This document shows positions 3,400 to 64,000 of a stretch of DNA of 64,000 nt, one piece after another. The notes beneath the pieces were generated by a model. The model was not told the origin of the DNA, made no database searches, and worked only from the letters and a program-made list of their open reading frames with translations. The stretch comes from Octopus vulgaris (lineage: Eukaryota): contig OX597816.1 of the NCBI GenBank assembly GCA_951406725.2, positions 87,172,001 through 87,236,000 on the forward strand, read 5' to 3'. The translations under genes and the position numbers were made by a program. Each line of letters begins with the position of its first letter. Positions within the stretch are counted from its first letter, which is position 1.

Positions 3400-3950
3400 C
3401 AGTTGTTTTAGATTAGGATTCATGCCCACTTTCCCTCCTCCCCTGCCTCTACCTCTCTCTCTTCTCTCCCCACGTGACTGGTGTTCGGCCAAGCCTGACC
3501 TTTCTTTCTTGGTTCGACTACCATTTATGCAACATCCATATTCCTCCCTGTGCCTGTCAAACCCTATGTCCCTGCCGTAAGGCTTTACTTCCACACACGC
3601 CAGCTTAATTTAATTCGTCCTTAGTCGAAAGATACCTGTTGTTATTTGCATTTTTATTTGTGTAACATTTCTCCGTTTTTCTGTCCTTGTTTTCGTGTAC
3701 ATTCGCTGCTTTCTTCCAAGGAATCTAATGCTCTTAGCTTAGTTTTTTCCTTGGGGCTGGCCAGATTGGAGCAACCTCGAGTGTAACCAGCTGAAATTGC
3801 AAAGATAATCTGGAACTCGACTGAGGAAAGAAAACTCCGAATGACCCGTTCTTGTTTTCTTTGTATCGTTGGTTTGGATGTTTTGCGTTCTTGTCCTATT
3901 TTTGTATTTTTTATAAATAGATATATAGCGGCGTACGTACACTTTGGTCT
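3400..3950 (+). mobile_element. Diverged copy of the non-coding Penelope-pLTR/retrozyme-like family (related to 57640-57910 and 61833-62880)
   Basis: Shared blocks: AATTCGTCC..GTCGAAAGA, TTTCTTCCAAGGAATCTAATGC, GGGCTGGCCAGATTGGAGCAA, GACTGAGGA..GAATGACCCGT. Ends in (TA)n. Confidence 0.75.
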
Positions 3951-3992
<42 letters not shown>

Positions 3993-3996
<4 letters not shown>

Positions 3997-4125
3997 GGGC
4001 TTCTTTCAGTTTCTCTCTACCAAATCCACTCACAAGGATTTGGTCGGCCCAAGGTTATACTAGAAGACACTTGCTGATGGTGCCACGCAGTGAGACTGAG
4101 CCCAGAACCATGTGCTTGGGAATTA
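3993..4125 (-). mobile_element. Partial tRNA-derived SINE, same family as 14413-14778
   Basis: GGGCTTCTTTCAGTTTC..ACCAAATCCACTCACAAGG..GGTGCCACGCAGTG matches the reverse complement of the family body. Confidence 0.8.
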
Positions 4126-12526: not shown

Positions 12527-12724
12527 GTAAATCCCAAAAAGAAGAACAACAAACATAAAAAATAAGAACAACGCGAGCACGCGGTACATGTAATGTATTA
12601 GCTGACGCCCAGGGAAGGAAAATATGATTTAACGTTTCGAGCAACGCTCTGCTTTAGAAACAGAGGAAAGTCCAATAGAAAGGAAGACGGAGGAAGAACA
12701 TCGCCAACGAATCACATGTGGTTA
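12527..12724 (-). mobile_element. About 200-bp pLTR-like element with decayed minimal hammerhead (family of 25970-26183)
   Basis: Minus strand TTT-CTAAAGCA-GAGC-gtt-GCTC-GAAACGTT-AAA. Homologous to the 26.0 and 27.1 kb copies and flanked by TA/TG repeats. Confidence 0.7.
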
Positions 12725-23481: not shown

Positions 23482-24125
23482 GCATCCTTTTTGTCTCGGG
23501 AGACAATGGAGCTGCGCATAAAATAATCTACACCGGCTTTTACATTTCATGTCCTAATACATCTGCTGTGGCTGTGTAGTCCTATCCTGGATAAACACTC
23601 CCTCTGGCAGGTGCCGCAAATGTAGCGAACATTTTGCCTGGCTGGTTGCAATGTCATAGTTTCTTGTTGACGTCTTTTCTTGTCTTTCCATTTCTCCTCT
23701 CTCCCTATGTCACTCCTTTGTGTTCCCTCTTTTACAGTACGTCGCCAATCTCCACGGTTGCTGGCAGCTGCTTCCCAGTTGCTAATATTGATGCCGCAGG
23801 CCTTCATGGTGCTTTTGCAAACATACTTGTATCGTAAGAACGGTCTTCCCACAGATCTAGTGCCCCTAGCAAGCTCTACGTAGAGTATGTCCTTGGGGAT
23901 TCTGCCATCTTCCATGCGGCTAACAAGTCCAAGCCATCTCATACGTCTTTGTGTGAGGAGTGCACATATGCTTGGTATTCCTGCTTGCTTGAGGACATCT
24001 TTGTTGGGGACATGATTCTGCCATTTGATGCGAAGGATATTCCGGAGGCAGCGCAGGTGAAAGATATTTAGGCGAAGGCTCTTGGCGTGTGTATGGCGGC
24101 CAAATCTCACTTTCATACGTCATGT
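23471..24125 (-). mobile_element. 5'-truncated RTE-clade LINE (RT C-terminal region and C2H2 finger)
   Basis: ORF 23547-24116: RLNIFHLRCLRNILRIKWQ..RRMRWLGLVSRMEDGRIPKDILY..GRPFLRYK..CGTC..GLHSH. Short 3'UTR ending in (CAA)n next to (TA)n. Confidence 0.93.
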
Positions 24126-24420
24126 TCTTGTCACTTGTTTTACCCCTCTGCAAAAGAATTTTATTTAATTCCTTTTGCAGGAAGTACTGCTTCGGCCTGG
24201 CCGTGTTCTGCCCTTACCTTCGAAACACGCATTGAGTCGAACCAGGGGCAGCTGATGAAGGGGAATTTTCCTTGTATTGTTTGTCCTATACTCTGTTTTT
24301 TCGTTGTTTTAAAAAAAGTATGTTTCCTTGTTTTTTAGTTGTTAAAAAAAGTCCGTTTCCTTGTTTGATTTTATGTTTTCGTCTCTCGTTGTGTTCTACG
24401 TTTATTTGTGGTGTCCTGTA

Positions 24421-24424
<4 letters not shown>
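24126..24424 (+). mobile_element. About 300-bp structured non-coding element (pLTR/retrozyme-like)
   Basis: Hairpin CTGCAAAAG..CTTTTGCAG, then hammerhead core segments, then a T-rich tail ending in (TA)n. Same architecture as the other pLTR-like elements in the window. Confidence 0.6.
24202..24263 (+). ncRNA. Candidate non-circularly permuted hammerhead ribozyme
   Basis: CGTGT-T-CTGCCCTT-a-CCTTC-GAA-ACACG ... AGGGGCAG-CTGATGA-a-GGGG. Stem III is 5 bp, stem I is 8 bp, stem II is weak, and the core is intact with a GUU triplet. Confidence 0.6.
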
Positions 24425-25971: not shown

Positions 25972-26179
25972 TTCAAAATGTGACCGCGTGTGTATCGTTG
26001 GCGATTTTTTCCTCTGTCTTCCCTTCCTTGGACTTTTCCTTTCCTCTATATTTCTGACGAAGAGCTCCGCTCGAAACGTTAAATCCTCCTTCTTTCTTTC
26101 CTTTCTTGAGCGTCCAATAACACTATACGTGTTCCACGTCCACGCGTTGTTGTTTTTTTCTTTGTGTTTTCATGTTTGG

Positions 26180-27021: not shown

Positions 27022-27232
27022 CTCAACATGTGATCTCTTGAGCACCACCAGCAAAAAAAATTTTTTCCTGTCTTCCCTTCTCGGGATCTTTCCTTCTCCT
27101 TTGTTTCCGACGAGAGCTCCGCTCGAAACGTTTAAGCCCTCCTTCTTTCCTGAGCGTCAAATAATACTTTAATTGTTCCACGTCCTCGCGTTGCTGTGTT
27201 TTTTTTTTTGTGTTTTCTTGTTTGGATTAACT
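27022..27232 (+). mobile_element. Second pLTR-like copy with hammerhead (core CCGACGA)
   Basis: TTT-CCGACGA-GAGC-tcc-GCTC-GAAACGTT at about 27104-27132; TA-flanked. Confidence 0.75.
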
Positions 27233-32719: not shown

Positions 32720-33384
32720 GCTAGATGAAGAGGAGAGGAGACATGAGCCCATGTGGCACACAGGAGCAAAGAGAGAAGATGGGAGACCGTATGGACCCTG
32801 TGCAAGGACAATCCGAACACAGACAGGTGTTGTAAAGAGTGACCGGTAGAGCGGAAATGACGCAAGACCGGGGTGTCGTTGCAGTCAGATGTCTCGGAGG
32901 TGTTCCGCGAACCGGGAAGCCAAGCGGCGTCTCGTTTGATCGATGTATAGAGAAGGGCAGAGAGAGCAGGAGATGCAGTAGATGACGTTGCTAGAAGCGC
33001 AGGTGAAGGAGTCAGTGATATGATAGGGTTGATGAGGGGTGCCTGTGAGGAGGGTGGTGCTGGAGAGGTAAGGGCAGGTGAAGCACCGTGGACCAGAGCA
33101 GAGGAACGAACCGCGTTGGGAGGTTGGGTTAAGGCGGAAGCTTGTGGGCTCGTTTGAAGGAGAGGGTTGGTTAGGGAAGATGTGCGAAGTGGAGGAGTCG
33201 GACAAGAGTGCCGGAAGGCTCGGTGAATGGTGCGTTGGAGAGGTGAGAGGTAGAGTGGTGGGGTGGTAGGTGAGAGGAAACAGAAGATGGGTAACGGCGG
33301 GGCGAATGAGGAGGAGAGAGCCGATGCACGCCACGGAACGTACTCTGGCAAGGGCGGTGTGTATAGTGATGAGGGGATATCCAT
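32720..33384 (-). mobile_element. Penelope-like element 3' fragment (RT thumb, Zn motif, GIY-YIG endonuclease)
   Basis: FPLTYHP..CSGPRCFTCPY..FTCASSNVIYCISCSLCPSLYIDQTRRRLASRFAEH, then after a frameshift PVLRHFRSTGHSLQHLSVFGL. Confidence 0.92.
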
Positions 33385-33601
33385 ATTCTTTTATTCTTTT
33401 ACTTGTTCCAGTCCTTTAACTGTGGCCATACAGGAGCAACGCCTTCTTTCGAACAAATCGACCTCAGGTCTTATTCTTTGTAGACCCAGTTCTTATTCTA
33501 TTGGTCTCTTTTGCCGAGGACGTATACACCAACATCGGTTGTCAAGTGACGTGGTGGGTTAGGGGCACAAAAACAGACACAGAAATACATACATATATTT
33601 G

Positions 33602-36182: not shown

Positions 36183-37699
36183 AGCTCTAAAATGAAATAG
36201 AAAATCCGCAAGGAATGCTGCCGAAGGGTAAGAATGGTCCAAAACTCAGAATTAAATGCTGCCAACAGAATTAATGCGATCTATTCTTTAGCCATATCAG
36301 TAACCTCGTATGGCTTCAGTATCGTTAAGTGGAGTTTCACTGACATGCAGAATATGTATGGAAAGATTTGTAAAATCCTTACAAGGTACTGAATGCACCA
36401 TCCAAAATCAGATGTAGACAGGATTTATCTCCCAAGAAAAATAGGAGGAAGAGGCCTGATACAGCTCGAACAACCCTTCAAATCAGCAATGATAGGCCTT
36501 GAAACGTACCTTAATACAGCTAGTGATGTGCTCTTACGAACTGCTCTGAAGCAAGAAGATTCCAAACAAGCTTCAGTCATGGAGCTTTGTCAGAAATTTA
36601 AAAAGTCTCTTGGACTACAAGTTAACAATAAGAATGACCAAAGACACCCAAATACTGACAGACCTACTATTGCTTCTCTTGATTTAGAAATTAACAATCA
36701 GAAAGACCAATGAGATCCAAATAGGGACAAACCTATCACTGATGCAAGAAACATCACACAAAAAGAAAGCTTGCACGAATAATGTGCAAAGACAACTAGA
36801 AAGGCAAACTCCTGCAAGGAAAATACTCTAACCGCCTGTCCAAGCCAGATATTGATCAAGACCTAACATACCAATGGCTATAAGGGTCAGGTCTGAAATA
36901 AGAAACAGAAGGTTTTTGTTATTGCAGCGCAAGATCAGAGCTTACCTATCAGAAACTACCATGCAAGCATCCGTAAAGGTAGATCTGACCCCTCATGCAG
37001 GATTTGCGGAAAATTTACAGAGACAATTGATCATGTTGTTTCTGGCTGCCCAGTCTTCGCTGAAAAGGAGCACCTCATCAGTTCCATGACAGACGAGGGC
37101 AGTACATCCACTGGAATGCTTTTTAAATACTACAAAATCAAATCCCATGATAAGTGGTACAGGCACCATCGAGAGGATGTAGTAAATGGCGAGGGCGTCA
37201 CCATCTTTTGGAACTTCCAAATACAAACAGAGAGCAAAATTGACTCCAATCGACCAGACATTGTGATCAAGGACTGTAACAGAGGAAGTTGTCTGTTAAT
37301 AGGTATGTCAAAATATCTCAAGAAAAGAATACGAAAAGCTTTCTCACTATAAAGATCTGCAAGTTGAAATCACAAATATGTGGAATCTTAGTACTATGAT
37401 AATACCAGTAGTAATTGGTGCATTGGCAATGATAAAAAAGAGAGCTGAGAAGTATAGTAAGCAACTCCCTGGTAACTCCAATCTCCGTGAACTACAAAAG
37501 ATACCCTTGATGGGTACAGCGTATGTACTACAGAAAGCACTCTCCATCTAAAATGGAATAAATGTGGAGATAATTTTAGCATGTATAGCAAAACAAAAGT
37601 GTCCTTGTTACTCTTGGCCTCCGGGGGATGCCCGATACAAAGGCAGCTGAAATAAAGTTATAATGAAAAGAAACCATAAATAACAATAATAATAATAAT

Positions 37700-42047: not shown

Positions 42048-42182
42048 TATAGTGCAGTGGATAAATGCGCTGAACTACATTACAGTCACCTAGCAGTTCT
42101 GAGTTTAATCTCAGGCAAGGTATTAAGGTGAATCACAACACACCTGAAGAAGGCTGGAACGTACACAACCTAAACGTAGTGA
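42048..42182 (+). mobile_element. Old copy of the tRNA-head plus hammerhead SINE-like element
   Basis: TAGTGCAGTGGATAAATGCGC..CTGAGTTTAATCTC head followed by ACAC-CTGAAGA-AGGCTGG..CAACC-TAAACGTAGTG; similar to the 49.5 kb element. Confidence 0.55.
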
Positions 42183-55825: not shown

Positions 55826-57639
55826 TCATTGTTGAAGTGACCTAACAATAACATAAAATGTTATAGAGTTATGAAACATAAAAATGCATAATACACATAT
55901 TTATACCTTTTATATTTATGTATTTCTTAAATCAATTGATTTTAGTGTCCTCAAATGCTAGTATCACCACCTTAGTGGGATTTCATCACACCAAAATACC
56001 TATCAGTTTCTAAATGACTGGTTTTGCTTCGGTCTGAACAATTTGCCATTTCACAATTTACAAGTTTCATCTACTTTTTTATTTAAATAACAACGACTTG
56101 ACTTACCTGTTCAAGTCATCTCGAAGAGGCTGAGAATTTCATCAGATAGAAAAGATTCTAACTTAGCTTCTTCAATATCTCCTGCTATAGCTGACTTCCT
56201 TTACCAAAAGGCAAAACAGTTAAATGCTTTTCCCGTGCTTAGATGACAGCAAGGGTTTTACAAGATATGATATGCCCAGATAATAGCTACTGTCATACTT
56301 AACAAAAGATGAAAGCTCACAAATAGACAATGCATAAAGTTTGGATTTTTGAATCGGGATTGCAGTCAGACAATCCATGTGTTATTTTTTGACAAAACGC
56401 ATTTTCCTGTTGACTACGCTCCCATATGTATAATTTTAACTGGAATTGTATTTACCTTTTATCGACATTACATGGCCAATATACTTTACAAAATCGTTTA
56501 AAGTTCTCGGCTTAAAACTGCGCAGACTGAGGACGTTCACCATTGTCCATCATTAGATATATTCTTCACTACCAGACTATAAAATGCGACAGCATGCATT
56601 CTAATGGCAGCGTTTCATAGATAGCACAAGTCTATTTTCCTAACTACATTCCAGTTACCAAGAGCTTCTCCTTAGCTTGCGCTTGATCTAGTAATGCAGC
56701 TTACTCGACTTAATGATTGCCATATCTTTCCAACTTCCGTGGCTATTCGTTTCCGCTGTCGGCAGTGTAAGCAAAACTCTGGTTGTTGAGAATAGTTCCA
56801 CTCTGCTGCGGAGAAGGGAGTAGGGGAAAGGGAAAAGGGGGAAATGGAGATGAGGAGGGGAGAGTAAGGAGAGAGGGGAGAATGCTGAGGGAGAAAGAGA
56901 AGATGGGGAGGGGAGGGGGAAGAGTGGAAAATGGGGATGAGGAGAAACAGTCACAAAGCCAGCAGATAAGGAGCTTCATAATCTTTTATCAAGTTCTCGT
57001 TGGTACCTTTCTACTTTCGTAGAAAATTGCCAGGACTTATTAATTGCATAGTGATCAGGGGACAGCTCAATGACGTCAATGCATATTCAAATTATTCCAG
57101 CATAGAATTCATTGATTAGAGCATTGATCTAAATGAACAGCCATTGTCAAAGACAATATACCACACGATATTGAGATGTCTTAAACAAGAACACTGCCAA
57201 ATTAAATAACATTAAAATTGGAAATAGCTTAATCGCTTTCTGCTTAATTTGATTACGAGATATAAAACCATGAAGCAAAAATGGCTGCTTTTCTGTTGTT
57301 TTGTATTTTTGTGGAATTTCAAGAGCACCCATTTAAATTCTGAGTTCAAATTCCACTGAGAAAGATTTTTTCTTTCATTAATCCGTGGTAGCAGTCAGAT
57401 TCTGAGGTCAATATAATCGGTGATCCTCAGCATTAGTGGCCTTCTGCCACTATACGAATTGTATATGTACCAGTTCCGTTAACAATGCACTTCTCTAAGA
57501 TCACAGGTTCTGAAATGCTTTTAGACCCATATGCTCTGGTGTTTCTACAACATTTTGTGGACCCTCTCTAGAACCTTGTAACTTATGCCGTTTTTTTTCT
57601 GGAACACCTCAGCAGCTCGGACTAAGTTGTCAAACGACT

Positions 57640-57910
57640 GCACCGACTGTTTTTCCGTCCTTGTTTTTGTATATATTCGATGCTTTCTTCTAAGGAATCT
57701 AATGCTCTTAGTTTAGATTTTCCTTGGGGCTGGCCAGATTGGAGGAATCTCAAGATTAATCAGCCGAAATTACGAGCATGATCTGGTTCTTGACTGAGGA
57801 TAGAAAGCTTAGAATGACCCGTCCTTGTTTTTTTGTATCGTCTATCTGGATGTTTTCTTATCCCTTTTTGTATCACCTAGTTGTCCGGATCTTTTGCGTT
57901 CCTGTCCCAA
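57640..57910 (+). mobile_element. Copy of the retrozyme-like family repeat with permuted hammerhead motif
   Basis: AATC-TCAAGA-ttaat-CAGCC-GAAATT..GATCTGG-t-TCTTGA-CTGAGGA at 57746-57800; ends at (TA)n. Confidence 0.75.
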
Positions 57911-58379
57911 TATATATATATATTTATATACGACAGACTTCTTTCAGTTTCCGTCTACTTAATCCACCCATACAGCTTTGGTCGGCTCGAGACTATAGTA
58001 GAATACACATGGGCAAGGTGCCACGCAGTGGAAATAAACCTGAAACCATGTGGTTGGGAAACAAGCGTCTTACCGCACAGCCACGCCTGTGCCTAGTGGA
58101 TAAATAATACCAATTTTTTTCCAAACTCCTATTTTGGTATATAATGACTCTGCAAAGAATATTGTTCGGAATTTACAACTTTTACGTAAACTCTCTCAGA
58201 TATAACATCTACATACGGATTTGGAATTCTGGAATAAAGAGTTGTGCTTCAAGAAGACACAGCTTGGAGGTTGCACCCTTATGTGTGTGTGTATGTGTGT
58301 GTGCATACATACATATATATATTTATGTATATGTGTGTATATATATATCTATATATATATATATTTTTGTATGTACATC

Positions 58380-60186: not shown

Positions 60187-61475
60187 TCATGTCATTCCAT
60201 AAGTTCTGTCCGATTTTACCCTTTTTTTAAAATTGAAATGAAATTGAATACTATTTTAGACTGTCGAATGGAATTAAAAATTATTTCTATGCATTTTAGC
60301 ACATTTAAACTAATTAAATATTATTTTACCGAATAACAGAATTAAATTTTCTTTGGTTAAAACCCTTTCTAACATGGAAGTATCAAAAGAGCATTTGAGG
60401 CACATAATGCTTTATGAGTACAAAAAAGGAAACTCTGCAGCCGAAGCGACTCGAAACATACATTCAGTTTATGGGAAATAATGCTTGAATGAAAGAACTT
60501 GCAGAAGATGGTTTGCAAAATTCACAAGTGGAGATTTCAGCCTTGAAGATGAAGAGTGAACAGGACGTCCAGTTGAGTTTGATGATAAGCTCCTTGGGGC
60601 ATTACTTGAAGAAAATCCTGCATTATCAGTTGAAGAATTGGCAATAAAACTTAGTTCAAACCATACAACTGTTCATCGTCATCTCCAACAACTTAGAAAG
60701 GTTCCTAAACTTGGAAAATGGGTGCCTCATAAATTGTCCGAAAGCAACCACAAATCCCGAGTTGACATCTGCTCTTCTCTCCATTCTCGAGAACTTAATT
60801 CACCCTTTTTGGATAGACTTGTGACCGGTAACGAAAAATGGATCTTCTATCGAAATGTTAAACGTCGAAAACAGTGGCTTGGTAAAAGGGAAAAGTTCAA
60901 ACACAGCCGAGAAGGGAACTCATGGGGAAAAGGTCCTTTTCTCTATCTGGTGGGATTGCAAAGAAGTAATTCACTTTGAATTGTGGCCATCTAATGCAAC
61001 AATCAATGCTCAAGTCTACTGTCAGCAATTAGAACGTTTGAACCAAGCTTTGAAGAAAAAAAGACCCACTTTAGTGAATCGAAAAGGAGTGATGTTTCAT
61101 CAGGACAATGCACGACCCCACACTGCAAAGATCACATCACAGAAGATCGAAGAGCTTGGTTGGGAAAAAATTCCTCATCCACCTTATTCTCCCGACCTTG
61201 CTAGTTCAGACTACCATTTGTTTTGTAACTTACAGAATCATTTGTGGGACATAACTTTTGCAAACCAAGAAGAGGTCGAAACTAACATTTCAGAGTTCTT
61301 CGCCTTGAAACCAAAAGAGTTTTACATTGATGGGATTAAAAAGCTTGTAAATAGATGGAAGGAAGTCATAGATAATGAGGGAAAGTACGTTGAGGATTAA
61401 ATTTCAATTAAATATAACATTTGATCACTTGTTTTCTTTATTCAAAATTCAAACAGAACTTATGGGATGATCTGA
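60187..61475 (+). mobile_element. Full-length mariner (DD34D) transposon with TA TSD
   Basis: TIRs TCATGTCATTCCATAAGTTCTGT and ACAGAACTTATGGGATGATCTGA, with TA on both sides; about 1.29 kb. Confidence 0.95.
60374..61400 (+). pseudogene. Mariner transposase pseudogene
   Basis: MEVSKEHLRHIMLYEYKKG.., WVPHKL, VTGNEKW (first catalytic D changed to N), HQDNARPH, YSPDLASSDYHLF. Two in-frame stops and a frameshift near 60900. Confidence 0.95.
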
Positions 61476-61799
61476 TATATACACCATACTTCAGGAAGTT
61501 GTGTGCTATATTTTTACATGACTCAGATGCACATCAAATAAACTGGTAGCACTCCCTTGTCACTCTCAGTAGCAGAAATACTGCGAGCCAATAATGGTGG
61601 GTGGTGGCATAGAAAATCTGTAACCGGGACGTTATTGTCCATAAATTGCTATACAAAGTAATATGTATAGATCAGAGTGTGGGTGGTTATTTCCTAACTT
61701 TACGGTTTGTTGACGAATAAGGAAGAGAGTACTCAATATATGAAAAGAATGTATAGTTTATTTAAATTTAATAGCTAACTGACGACACAAGTTTCACGC

Positions 61800-61832
<33 letters not shown>

Positions 61833-62876
61833 GGTAAACAGTAAAAATAATTACAGACATGGACAAGAACATGAAACGCCACAGAGACGACACAAGAACC
61901 ACAGGACGGGACATTCGAAGCCCTCAGTCATCAGTCAAGAACCAGATCATCTTAGCAATTTCGGCTGATTAATCTTGAGATTGCTCCGATATGGCCAGCC
62001 CGCCACGGGAAATCTAAGCCAAGTGCATTAGATCCCCTGGAAGAAAGCTTCGAATGTATACAACACGAGGACGGAAAACGAACGAAGTGCACGAACAAAA
62101 ATACAGAATACGTGACAACAATAAGAATACAAAAACGTAAAAACAATAACGGTAAAAATAAAGTATAACAAATAAACAACAAAACAAAACCAGGACGTAG
62201 GACAAGGGTCTTTCGACAGGACGAATTGAGCATGGGGCAGGCTTATGAAGTTGTGCCTAATGGCCACAGGGAGACGAACAAGTACGTGTTGCTTCAACGG
62301 CTGCTGGAACGAAAAGAGCGTTCAACAGCGGCTAGCGGTCACGTGAGAACAAAAGACAAGAGAAAGGGACAGATGAAAAGAGAGAGAAAAGGTGGACGAG
62401 GGAGGAGAAGAAAGAGACAGATCGAGGGGGCTGGAGGTGAGAGAGATAGAGAAACGTAGAAGGGGGGGGGGAAACGGATGGAGAGGGAAAGAAAGGAGGG
62501 GGAATAAGGGAGGAGAGAGAGAGAGAAAGAAAGATTAAGAGTCGTATCAATGCTTGAGAAAAAAATATACATATCGTATAAGGACAATTGTGGATACGTA
62601 GCCGCCGATTATATAGGTAAACAGTAAAAATAATTACAGACATGGACAAGAACATGAAACGCCACAGAGACGACACAAGAACCACAGGACGGGACATTCG
62701 AAGCCCTCAGTCATCAGTCAAGAACCAGATCATCTTAGCAATTTCGGCTGATTAATCTTGAGATTGCTCCGATATGGCCAGCCCGCCACGGGAAATCTAA
62801 GCCAAGTGCATTAGATCCCCTGGAAGAAAGCTTCGAATGTATACAACACGAGGACGGAAAACGAACGAAGTGCACG

Positions 62877-62880
<4 letters not shown>
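61833..62880 (-). mobile_element. Non-coding retrozyme/pLTR-like element: 265-bp direct repeats, 783-bp period, inserted in (TA)n
   Basis: 61833-62097 appears identical to 62616-62880. (TA)n lies immediately outside both ends. No credible ORF. Each repeat holds hammerhead core segments. Confidence 0.85.
61928..62000 (-). ncRNA. Candidate pseudoknotted/permuted hammerhead (second copy 62711-62783)
   Basis: Minus strand GGCTG-g-CCATATC-gg-AGCAAT-C-TCAAGA-ttaat-CAGCC-GAA-ATTGCT-aagat-GATCTGG-t-TCTTGA-CTGATGA. Confidence 0.55.
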
Positions 62881-62913
<33 letters not shown>

Positions 62914-63284
62914 TATGCATAAGCTAGTGGGGGATATACTACATAACATATGCAAAAATATTCTTAATTGAAATTTCCTCTTTGTTGAAGAAAGAAAATA
63001 ACGACTTAGTATTACTGAAGTTGGGTGGCAGAGTCAGAAGCTGACACTCTCAATTCTGTTTTCGCCTCTCTTCTTTGTCCTGCCGATGTTGACCAACAGA
63101 AGTTAAGGCTAGACATCAACCGCATGAATTTCATTCGTATCGGAAGGTCTATAAAGGCCATTTGCACTGTTTCTCTCCCTCCTCCACTGACTAAATTATT
63201 GATAGAAAGCGACCAGAAGATGGATAGACAGTCGTTAGAGCATTGAACTAACTACTATGTGATATTTAATCTGATACCTTGGGC

Positions 63285-63600
63285 TCTAAGTTCAGATCTC
63301 AGCAAGGACTATTTTGCATTCATCCTTCGGGGTCAATAAATTAAGTAGCCGTCAAGCGCTATGCATTGGCGGAATCACTAGAGAGTCCACCGAGGTCGAT
63401 TTGCCTTTCATCCTTTCTGGGTCGATAAATTAAGTACCAGTTGCATACTGGAATCGATCTAATCCACTGGCCCCCTTCCCAAAATTTTCTGGCCTTGTGC
63501 CAGAAAAGGAAACGCTAGAGCGTCAAACAAAATGCATTGCAGTATTTGTTCAGGCTCAGTACGTCGTGAGTTCAAATATCGCTGTGAGCTACTCAACTGT
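63285..63600 (+). mobile_element. Nested/fragmented Deu/Nin-domain SINEs; another head starts at about 63940 and runs off the window
   Basis: Repeated GCMTTCATCCTT..GGGTCRATAAATTAAGTA cores; AAGGCGGTGAGGTAGCAGAATCGTTA head at the window end. Confidence 0.8.
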
Positions 63601-64000
63601 TAATCTTAATCCGTCTCCAAGTTTAAGAACATTACATATCACCTAAGGTACCTCTAGTAGGTTCCACTCAGTTGCAAGCATACGGGCTTGAACGCCTATT
63701 AAAAACCTTCTTTCTTTCGCCTGCACCAGTTTTGGGATCTTTGTGAAGCATCTTGGGCATTGCCTTCTGACAAAAAAAAAATAATAAAAATCTGCTCTAA
63801 ACAAACACAGCAGTGCTATAAGAATCCTTGTCCACTTGTTATTGTATATAAATACCTTGGTATATAGCCTGGGTACCAGGACGATAGCCTATCTCCGTTG
63901 CCTTTTGTTCTCCTCATGATACCACTGAACTTAGCTAAGAAGGCGGTGAGGTAGCAGAATCGTTATCACGCCGGACGAAATGTTTAGCGGCATTTTTTCC

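Follow-up and report, generated by a model that had tools for sequence, protein, structure and literature searches.

Several described systems join retroelements with hammerhead ribozymes. The non-LTR retrozymes of animals are non-coding head-to-tail units of 51 to 972 bp with one type I hammerhead each, for which both circles and a non-autonomous origin from Penelope-type elements (PLEs) have been proposed (PMC7229834; bioRxiv 10.64898/2026.07.22.740005). The view of retrozymes as non-autonomous PLE derivatives (bioRxiv 10.64898/2026.07.22.740005) and the circle model, in which PLEs proceed from a circle to an insertion of more than unit length, as proposed in 2014 (PMC4209133), are thus already in print. 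Penelope and Neptune elements carry a minimal type I hammerhead in their pseudo-LTRs (PMC4209133); Naiad PLEs prefer (TA)n, form partial tandems with pseudo-LTRs, and end in a tail of 30 to 40 bp (PMC8557442); and plant LTR retrozymes have a monomer of about 600 to 1000 nt between two hammerheads located in terminal repeats (PMC4918200). The hammerhead types I, II, and III of Rfam are circular permutations of one block order. Non-circular permutations, including SGC and CSG, were described by Eckert et al. in 2023, SGC mostly from metatranscriptomes and CSG from two metagenome sequences, with none from the genomes of known organisms in the accessible text (PMC10085705).

The window analyzed here, a stretch of 64 kb, is microsatellite-rich animal DNA with a GC content of 35%. 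SINE features, together with a 12-nt word common to an element at 24.2 kb and two octopus Naiad consensi, suggest that the animal is an octopus. The window contains a 1,048-nt element, read on the minus strand, in which the repeats R2 (62616 to 62880, the 5' pseudo-LTR) and R1 (61833 to 62097, the 3' pseudo-LTR) enclose a 518-nt non-coding middle (62098 to 62615) with a long pyrimidine tract. R1 and R2 show 0 differences in 265 positions at an offset of 783 nt, and the exact match covers 271 nt (61827 to 62097 and 62610 to 62880), because the unit has (TA)3 right past the repeat end, at the start of the middle (62615 to 62610). The element amounts to 1.34 units of 783 nt and includes two complete ribozyme domains, each reaching from the 5' strand to the 3' strand of the helix P0 (62694 to 62840 in R2 and 61911 to 62057 in R1, predicted folds on the minus strand). 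A (TA)n tract adjoins it on the 5' side (62880 to 62909), and the (TA)n target tract lies on the 3' side (61806 to 61832); with such flanks, the right boundary can be placed only to within about 1 nt, and any target site duplication (TSD) is unreadable. None of the four ORFs (96 to 124 amino acids) overlapping the element had a Pfam match at an E value of ≤0.05, and a tRNA gene search found none. A sequence-only reading of this DNA had described identical 265-bp repeats 783 nt apart, a lack of coding capacity, and (TA)n directly on both sides, all of which hold, and the class that it proposed, a non-coding Penelope-type partial tandem with a (TA)n target, is supported. The element is very probably a non-autonomous Penelope-type retroelement, that is, a retrozyme. 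A GAAA-containing segment of the middle (62205 to 62220, minus strand), which forms a small hairpin in this young copy and is kept in an old copy at about 3620 to 3635 (plus strand), is a possible protein-binding element. A broken mariner-type transposase (PF01359, with HTH domains; 60560 to 61400, plus strand) lies about 400 nt from the element.

The element resembles the animal non-LTR retrozymes in its non-coding head-to-tail units with one hammerhead each, and its 783-nt unit falls inside their size range, but it differs from them by its predicted split, non-circular hammerhead, the 1.34-unit insertion, and the (TA)n target. With Naiads it shares the (TA)n preference, the partial tandem, and the tail, although Naiads are autonomous elements of 3.4 to 4.4 kb with an N-terminal GIY-YIG domain (PMC8557442), whereas the family of this element, called the main family below, is non-coding, and no sequence homology with Naiads was found. 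The distance between its two hammerheads is like that in plant LTR retrozymes, but these have a type III hammerhead, a PBS and PPT, a 4-bp TSD, and a Ty3-gypsy partner (PMC4918200), none of which were found here, a TSD being hidden in (TA)n.

On the minus strand, each repeat contains one CUGANGA motif, with GAAA upstream of it and AUC upstream of GAAA. Every hammerhead core nucleotide (CUGANGA, GAAA, and UH) is present in both repeats, and the order of the blocks is S-G-C (S being the cleavage site, G the GAAA, and C the CUGANGA), a non-circular permutation that is unlike types I, II, and III; an Rfam search of 61000 to 64000 at an E value of ≤5 gave no hammerhead match. The predicted H17, in the triplet AUC, falls at 62762 and 61979, exactly at the ribozyme sites of the sequence-only reading (62762/62761 and 61979/61978), with one domain per repeat. 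The 783-nt monomer of that reading corresponds to the distance between these sites (61979 to 62761, 44% GC) and would be released by cleavage at both. In R1, GAAA begins at 61962 and CUGAUGA at 61934. The R2 fold, all on the minus strand, consists of P0 (5' strand, 62840 to 62826; 3' strand, 62708 to 62694; 15/15 pairs), the hairpin P2b (about 62823 to 62786), stem II (62783 to 62778 and 62751 to 62746; 6/6), the helix Pi (62777 to 62771 and 62731 to 62725; 6/7), stem III (5' strand, 62767 to 62763; 5/5), H17 (62762), stem I (62761 to 62756 and 62723 to 62718; 6/6), GAAA (62745 to 62742), and CUGAUGA (62717 to 62711). Stems I and III abut the core, with 6 bp each by greedy extension.

The placement of stem II sets this fold apart. 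Stem II abuts GAAA with a G-C pair at 10.1-11.1, and its 5' strand, GGCUGG, stands upstream of block S, directly after P2b. A canonical stem II after CUGANGA (0 to 2 nt inserted) would have at most 1 bp in the young copy and in an old copy at 57 kb and 2 bp at most in an old copy at 3.6 kb; with complementarity this low, a canonical stem II was ruled out both in cis and between two copies. The strand that follows CUGANGA pairs about 120 nt upstream, forming the 15-bp P0. The far end of stem I is linked to that of stem II by Pi, which has 7/7 pairs in the other two copies and 6/7 in this insertion; the linker between stems I and II is 4 nt. The predicted model places a four-way junction at A9/10.1, where P0, P2b, and stem II would come together with the core. 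PLE hammerheads usually leave one base unpaired at this point, the 5' end of stem II (PMC4209133), and of 24 minimal cores on the plus strand among the best 80 of at least 362 relatives of a GIY-YIG fragment described below, 21 have such a base. Because PLE hammerheads commonly have this base, A9/10.1 tolerates insertion, and we infer that it may tolerate two whole helices. The S-G-C order, the short linker (about 3 nt there), and a I-II helix are shared with type SGC (PMC10085705), in which, however, block C is intact, while here the 5' strand of stem II has moved upstream and leaves a four-way junction. The Penelope/Neptune hammerheads share the position in a pseudo-LTR and have their unpaired base where the junction is placed here but, unlike this one, have the circular order and no stable stem III and are thought to act as dimers (PMC4209133). 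Nested folding gave z-scores of 0.29 and −1.33, neither significant, as expected for a pseudoknotted fold; the nested model, which cannot hold pseudoknots, favors P0 and leaves stems I to III uncertain, with a stem I probability of 0.05 in the young copy. For the plus strand, an HDV-like fold was considered by eye and discarded because it had no Rfam support. On the predicted model, the repeats would probably self-cleave at the two sites. This ribozyme topology and the link to Naiads described below are the most unusual features of the locus, and both were absent from the earlier reading.

Two old, diverged copies of the family, both on the plus strand, provide a comparison. The copy at 57605 to 57924 ends at (TA)n and has an intact core with one stem III pair broken; the copy at 3421 to 3974 comprises part of the middle, the repeat, and a tail, followed by (TA)n, and carries U16.1 to C. 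Both are about 29% different from the young repeat outside the ribozyme, and each has one damaging stem III change. Differences from the young repeat number 0/12 in the core, 2/30 in the stems, and 59/204 elsewhere in the 57.7-kb copy and 1/12, 5/30, and 65/221 in the 3.6-kb copy, where four of the five stem differences make up two compensatory stem I pairs. In the pairing alignment, which has four rows from three independent copies, 92.9% of the cells pair, compared with 22 to 45% when the rows are slid, and three pairs have both partners replaced, two of them in stem I and the third in Pi. Stem II shows two one-sided changes and no double-sided change within the family, and its covariation therefore comes from other families only. 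When the repeat was shuffled with its dinucleotides preserved, 9 of 100,000 shuffles reached a stem I of ≥6, a stem III of ≥5, and any stem II of ≥6 in any block order. Among the sequencing variants listed for the four runs aligned, the seven variable positions within 61928 to 62000, one of which is N7, all fall outside the 43 core and stem positions (rough P of 0.001). A variant at 61944, at 31 to 51% of the depth in three large runs, would mismatch Pi, and no partner change was found for it among the variants listed. It is very likely that the fold has been under selection. The end of the 3.6-kb copy lies some 39 nt deeper in the unit (1 of 5,000 shuffles scored as high), on a sequence that in the young element is the start of the middle (62577 to 62615, minus strand); this further end, in one old copy, matches the 'tail' signature of PLEs. 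Both old copies end at (TA)n that is followed by the same SINE-like sequence (3975 to 4120 and 57925 to 58090), which suggests that a microsatellite inside a SINE-like repeat is a frequent target.

Apart from the two repeats, a blind scan of the 64-kb window for all six block orders yielded a single further site, at 24207 to 24258. It lies in a sequence-unrelated element (24143 to 24424, plus strand) with a predicted split S-G-C hammerhead (H17 at 24207, GAAA at 24222, and CUGAUGA at 24252), which ends at (TA)n and stands head to head with a LINE-like fragment. Its helix order is that of the main family, with which it has no similarity beyond one 13-mer; its four-way junction has zero nucleotides, and two octopus Naiad consensi contain one of its 12-nt stem I/core words. 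The nested model prefers a local hairpin over stem II, giving stems II and III a probability of 0. The full descriptor, which was tuned after both elements were known, matches just these two families in the window and gave 6 matches in 2,251 shuffled windows. All four independent ribozyme-bearing insertions in the window reach (TA)5+ within 102 to 173 nt after CUGANGA, against a background of 0.19 each. No type CSG hammerhead was found in the window, and a DNA pattern scan gave no matches in metagenome contigs or in viral contigs. Two pattern matches in prokaryote genomes had no other part of the fold and were set down to chance, and single GCS, CSG, and GSC matches, at chance level, were dropped.

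Other ribozymes and retroelement remnants were observed in the window. At 26054 (plus strand) lies a PLE hammerhead of the classic minimal type I, in which one base is inserted behind CUGANGA; it belongs to a short, non-coding family followed by (TA)n, with relatives near 27060 to 27226 (plus strand) and 12553 to 12705 (minus strand). Decayed minimal type I hammerheads lie at 42144 (plus strand) and 49496 (minus strand), and their stem II strands together correspond to that of the main family. From this resemblance in sequence, a common origin with the main family is possible, and since a minimal type I family apparently shares stem II, an origin in canonical PLEs is still conceivable. C-terminal fragments of non-LTR retrotransposons are found at 23547 to 24119 (minus strand), which we take to be RTE-like and which has no Pfam match, and at 36393 to 37551 (plus strand), with a zf-RVT match at 36897 to 37349.

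Naiads have been reported to be without canonical hammerheads, with 8 of 54 flagged as 'half core' (Craig et al. 2021, PMC8557442, accessible part). The last 300 to 600 nt of 17 of the 54 Naiad consensi were read by eye rather than machine-checked, with names taken from the following header and the order of the metadata. In this reading, the split S-G-C form, with differing helix sequences, appears in Naiad_Obim, Naiad_Ovul, Naiad-4_Dst (all helices perfect), and Naiad_Esco (one stem II mismatch), which come from two octopuses, a squid, and an ostracod and are all listed with a (TA)n preference. Clean type CSG hammerheads, each with a helix between stems I and II, were read at the 3' ends of Naiad_Parc, Naiad-3_Nbra, Naiad_Hpol, and Naiad_Smim, three from nematodes and one from a spider. 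The end of Naiad_Sdum looks by eye like a decayed SGC hammerhead; those of Naiad-2_Dst and Naiad-3_Dst contain CUGANGA and were placed in no type; and no hammerhead was seen by eye in the displayed parts of six further ends. By eye, then, seven of the eight half-core Naiads in the accessible consensi resolve as non-circular hammerheads. It is an evenly balanced proposition that Naiads and their non-coding dependents carry non-circular, pseudoknotted, self-cleaving hammerheads that feed, in the present high-copy family, a circular-RNA cycle into (TA)n. Type CSG would then be the form of nematodes and a spider, and the split S-G-C form of cephalopods and an ostracod, with a four-way junction within the catalytic core, would be a seventh arrangement beyond the six permutations proposed.

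The enzyme that mobilizes the element would be supplied in trans. The earlier reading had pointed to a Penelope-type partner at 32.7 to 33.4 kb and had suggested a search for autonomous PLEs with the element's repeat. The Penelope GIY-YIG fragment is real, an ORF at 32885 to 33415 (minus strand) with a C-x4-C-x2-C linker of the Neptune/Nematis type, and its full-length relatives (2,372 relatives in a full search) are RT plus GIY-YIG proteins; a word-indexed search with the GIY-YIG piece among longer proteins gave 23 candidates, none of them significant. Its role as partner found no such support: it has no similarity to the element beyond pyrimidine tracts, and among the best 80 of at least 362 relatives, a minimal type I core occurs in 24 loci and an S-G-C hammerhead in 0/80. 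Neptune-type loci were accordingly rejected as carriers of the split ribozyme. These 80 loci, mostly from a few host-rich samples, were picked by likeness to P0005 and are therefore not the elements of the window's own organism. The octopus Naiad consensi contain neither of two main-family words, so the Naiad link is one of architecture and target only. Cephalopod Naiads are described as inactivated long ago (PMC8557442), which fits poorly with a very young insertion, and a (TA)n insertion bias is also described for Neptune (PMC8557442) and is thus not diagnostic of Naiads. Since architecture and target point to a Naiad-type partner, Naiads are likelier than the 32885 to 33415 fragment, and a Naiad-type PLE is slightly favored as the enzyme source. 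Being non-coding, the element could belong to the Naiad clade as a dependent only, as it has no N-terminal GIY-YIG domain, CxC motif, or RT.

Twenty public sequencing runs, under three organism codes, contain part of the element, and 17 of these contain at least half of its words. Four runs were aligned, with X19 and X20 (share of 0.09 to 0.10) left out. In two DNA runs over 61450 to 62615, most of the element reaches summed depths of about 40,000 to 3.5 million, compared with roughly 50 to 230 on the inner flank; these depths are not copy numbers, but the element family is clearly a high-copy repeat. The depth peaks over 61957 to 61995 (the S and G blocks) in all four runs. The core-to-middle depth ratio in X1, a run whose RNA status is a guess, is 999 to about 42, like that of the DNA run X2, and X1 was for this reason rejected as evidence of expression. 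In one X1 contig, a short run of TA interrupts otherwise family-like sequence precisely where cleavage is predicted (61978) and could be a scar of ligation or of an RT jump.

Taken together, the evidence moderately favors a Penelope-type retrozyme with a predicted non-standard hammerhead that would release a 783-nt RNA, which a Penelope-type RT/endonuclease would copy for more than one round into (TA)n. Transcription of the minus strand would pass through both repeats, and cleavage at AUC in each would yield the monomer, which would be ligated into a circle or bridged by an RT jump between its ends. An endonuclease would nick (TA)n, and the RT would start inside the RNA, either at the (UA)3 that follows the repeat or some 39 nt beyond it, and would copy across the cleavage site twice, so that both repeats would derive from one template. 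Since each repeat contains a whole ribozyme domain, a 1.34-mer is the least that is able to release a unit-length RNA. The insertion crosses the predicted cleavage site twice, and its 3' end is at (UA)3, 146 nt from the 5' end of the monomer. R1 and R2 also have in common some variants seldom seen in the family (62089 and 62024 in run X2), and they were therefore copied from one template or homogenized. With one template for both repeats, a circle is the simplest explanation, and an RT jump gives the same product. The tail of PLEs has been traced to two internal RT start sites (PMC11167929), which the 39-nt extension of the older copy matches. Monomers of animal retrozymes form circles, and RtcB ligates them in vitro (PMC7229834). 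In vitro, however, a purified PLE initiates inside uncleaved RNA and inserts it, the hammerhead being dispensable (PMC11167929), and for this reason the circle step, as modeled, is put only a little above an even chance.

The same observation supports the rival that survives best, in which the element and its ribozyme are as described but no circle is formed: an uncleaved linear transcript of more than unit length would be copied by internal initiation, or the RT would jump from end to end, and the ribozyme would merely trim transcripts or be a passenger. The Anolis PLE initiates inside its template in vitro, its insertion is normal when the hammerhead carries catalytic mutations, and the RNA-seq reads included none that stopped at its cleavage site (PMC11167929, accessible part); the runs aligned here likewise gave no evidence of a circle. 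However, linear copying alone would let the repeats drift, and here they are identical and share rare variants in a family about 29% apart outside the ribozyme, so that a linear route still needs a jump or occasional homogenization, while the monomers of animal retrozymes do circularize (PMC7229834). We regard this alternative as unlikely, though one to be reckoned with.

A retrozyme with an active ribozyme is also preferred over a fold that is real but without an active ribozyme at this locus, being a relic, a protein-binding structure, or a ribozyme active only with a protein or as a dimer. Block C is interrupted here, which Eckert et al. assumed never to happen beyond 1 to 2 nt (PMC10085705), PLE hammerheads are often weak (PMC4209133) or protein-assisted (PMC11167929), and competing nested folds exist. 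Against this stand the retention of all catalytic nucleotides with N7 free and the recurrence of the same junction with different sequences in several families, and inactivity is improbable. Two identical terminal direct repeats, with a minus-strand TG start if one (TA)n base is counted, might still suggest a non-autonomous LTR element of the TRIM/LARD type, or else an LTR retrozyme, in which strand transfer would have made two true LTRs identical. The element does not end in CA, there is no PBS-like or purine-tract sequence next to the repeats on either strand, the older copy has other ends and a tail, and the target is (TA)n, in agreement with the earlier statement that LTR ends are absent; this origin is very improbable. 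Least likely of all is a second repeat created by assembly duplication or homogenized in polishing, to which the perfect identity and the lack of a listed contig spanning the whole stretch might point, because X1 contigs contain both unit junctions (record 1, repeat end to middle with 0 other letters and, within the middle, 4 gaps; record 6, middle to repeat with 3 other letters), so that the repeat-middle-repeat unit is not an invention of the assembly, and in the 3.6-kb copy, too, the middle runs into the repeat and the repeat into the start of the middle.

A split-block hammerhead and non-circular hammerheads in animal retroelements were not found in the literature searched, most subscription papers being out of reach; hammerhead variants with additional helices are mentioned in one passage, accessible in part, that cites another reference. 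The predicted split ribozyme described here belongs to an animal mobile element, unlike the environmental SGC and CSG sequences (PMC10085705). The non-circular permutations of 2023 rested on CUGANGA and stem II being inseparable (PMC10085705), and a high-copy animal family in which two helices separate them would, if true, widen the fold space of the hammerhead and provide RNA engineers with a new scaffold; many genomic ribozymes would then also be escaping descriptor and Rfam searches. For the Penelope elements themselves, such a family would answer why Naiads seem to be without the hammerhead that is present in the others, and with a young and compact element, the role of cleavage in Penelope transposition would become testable.
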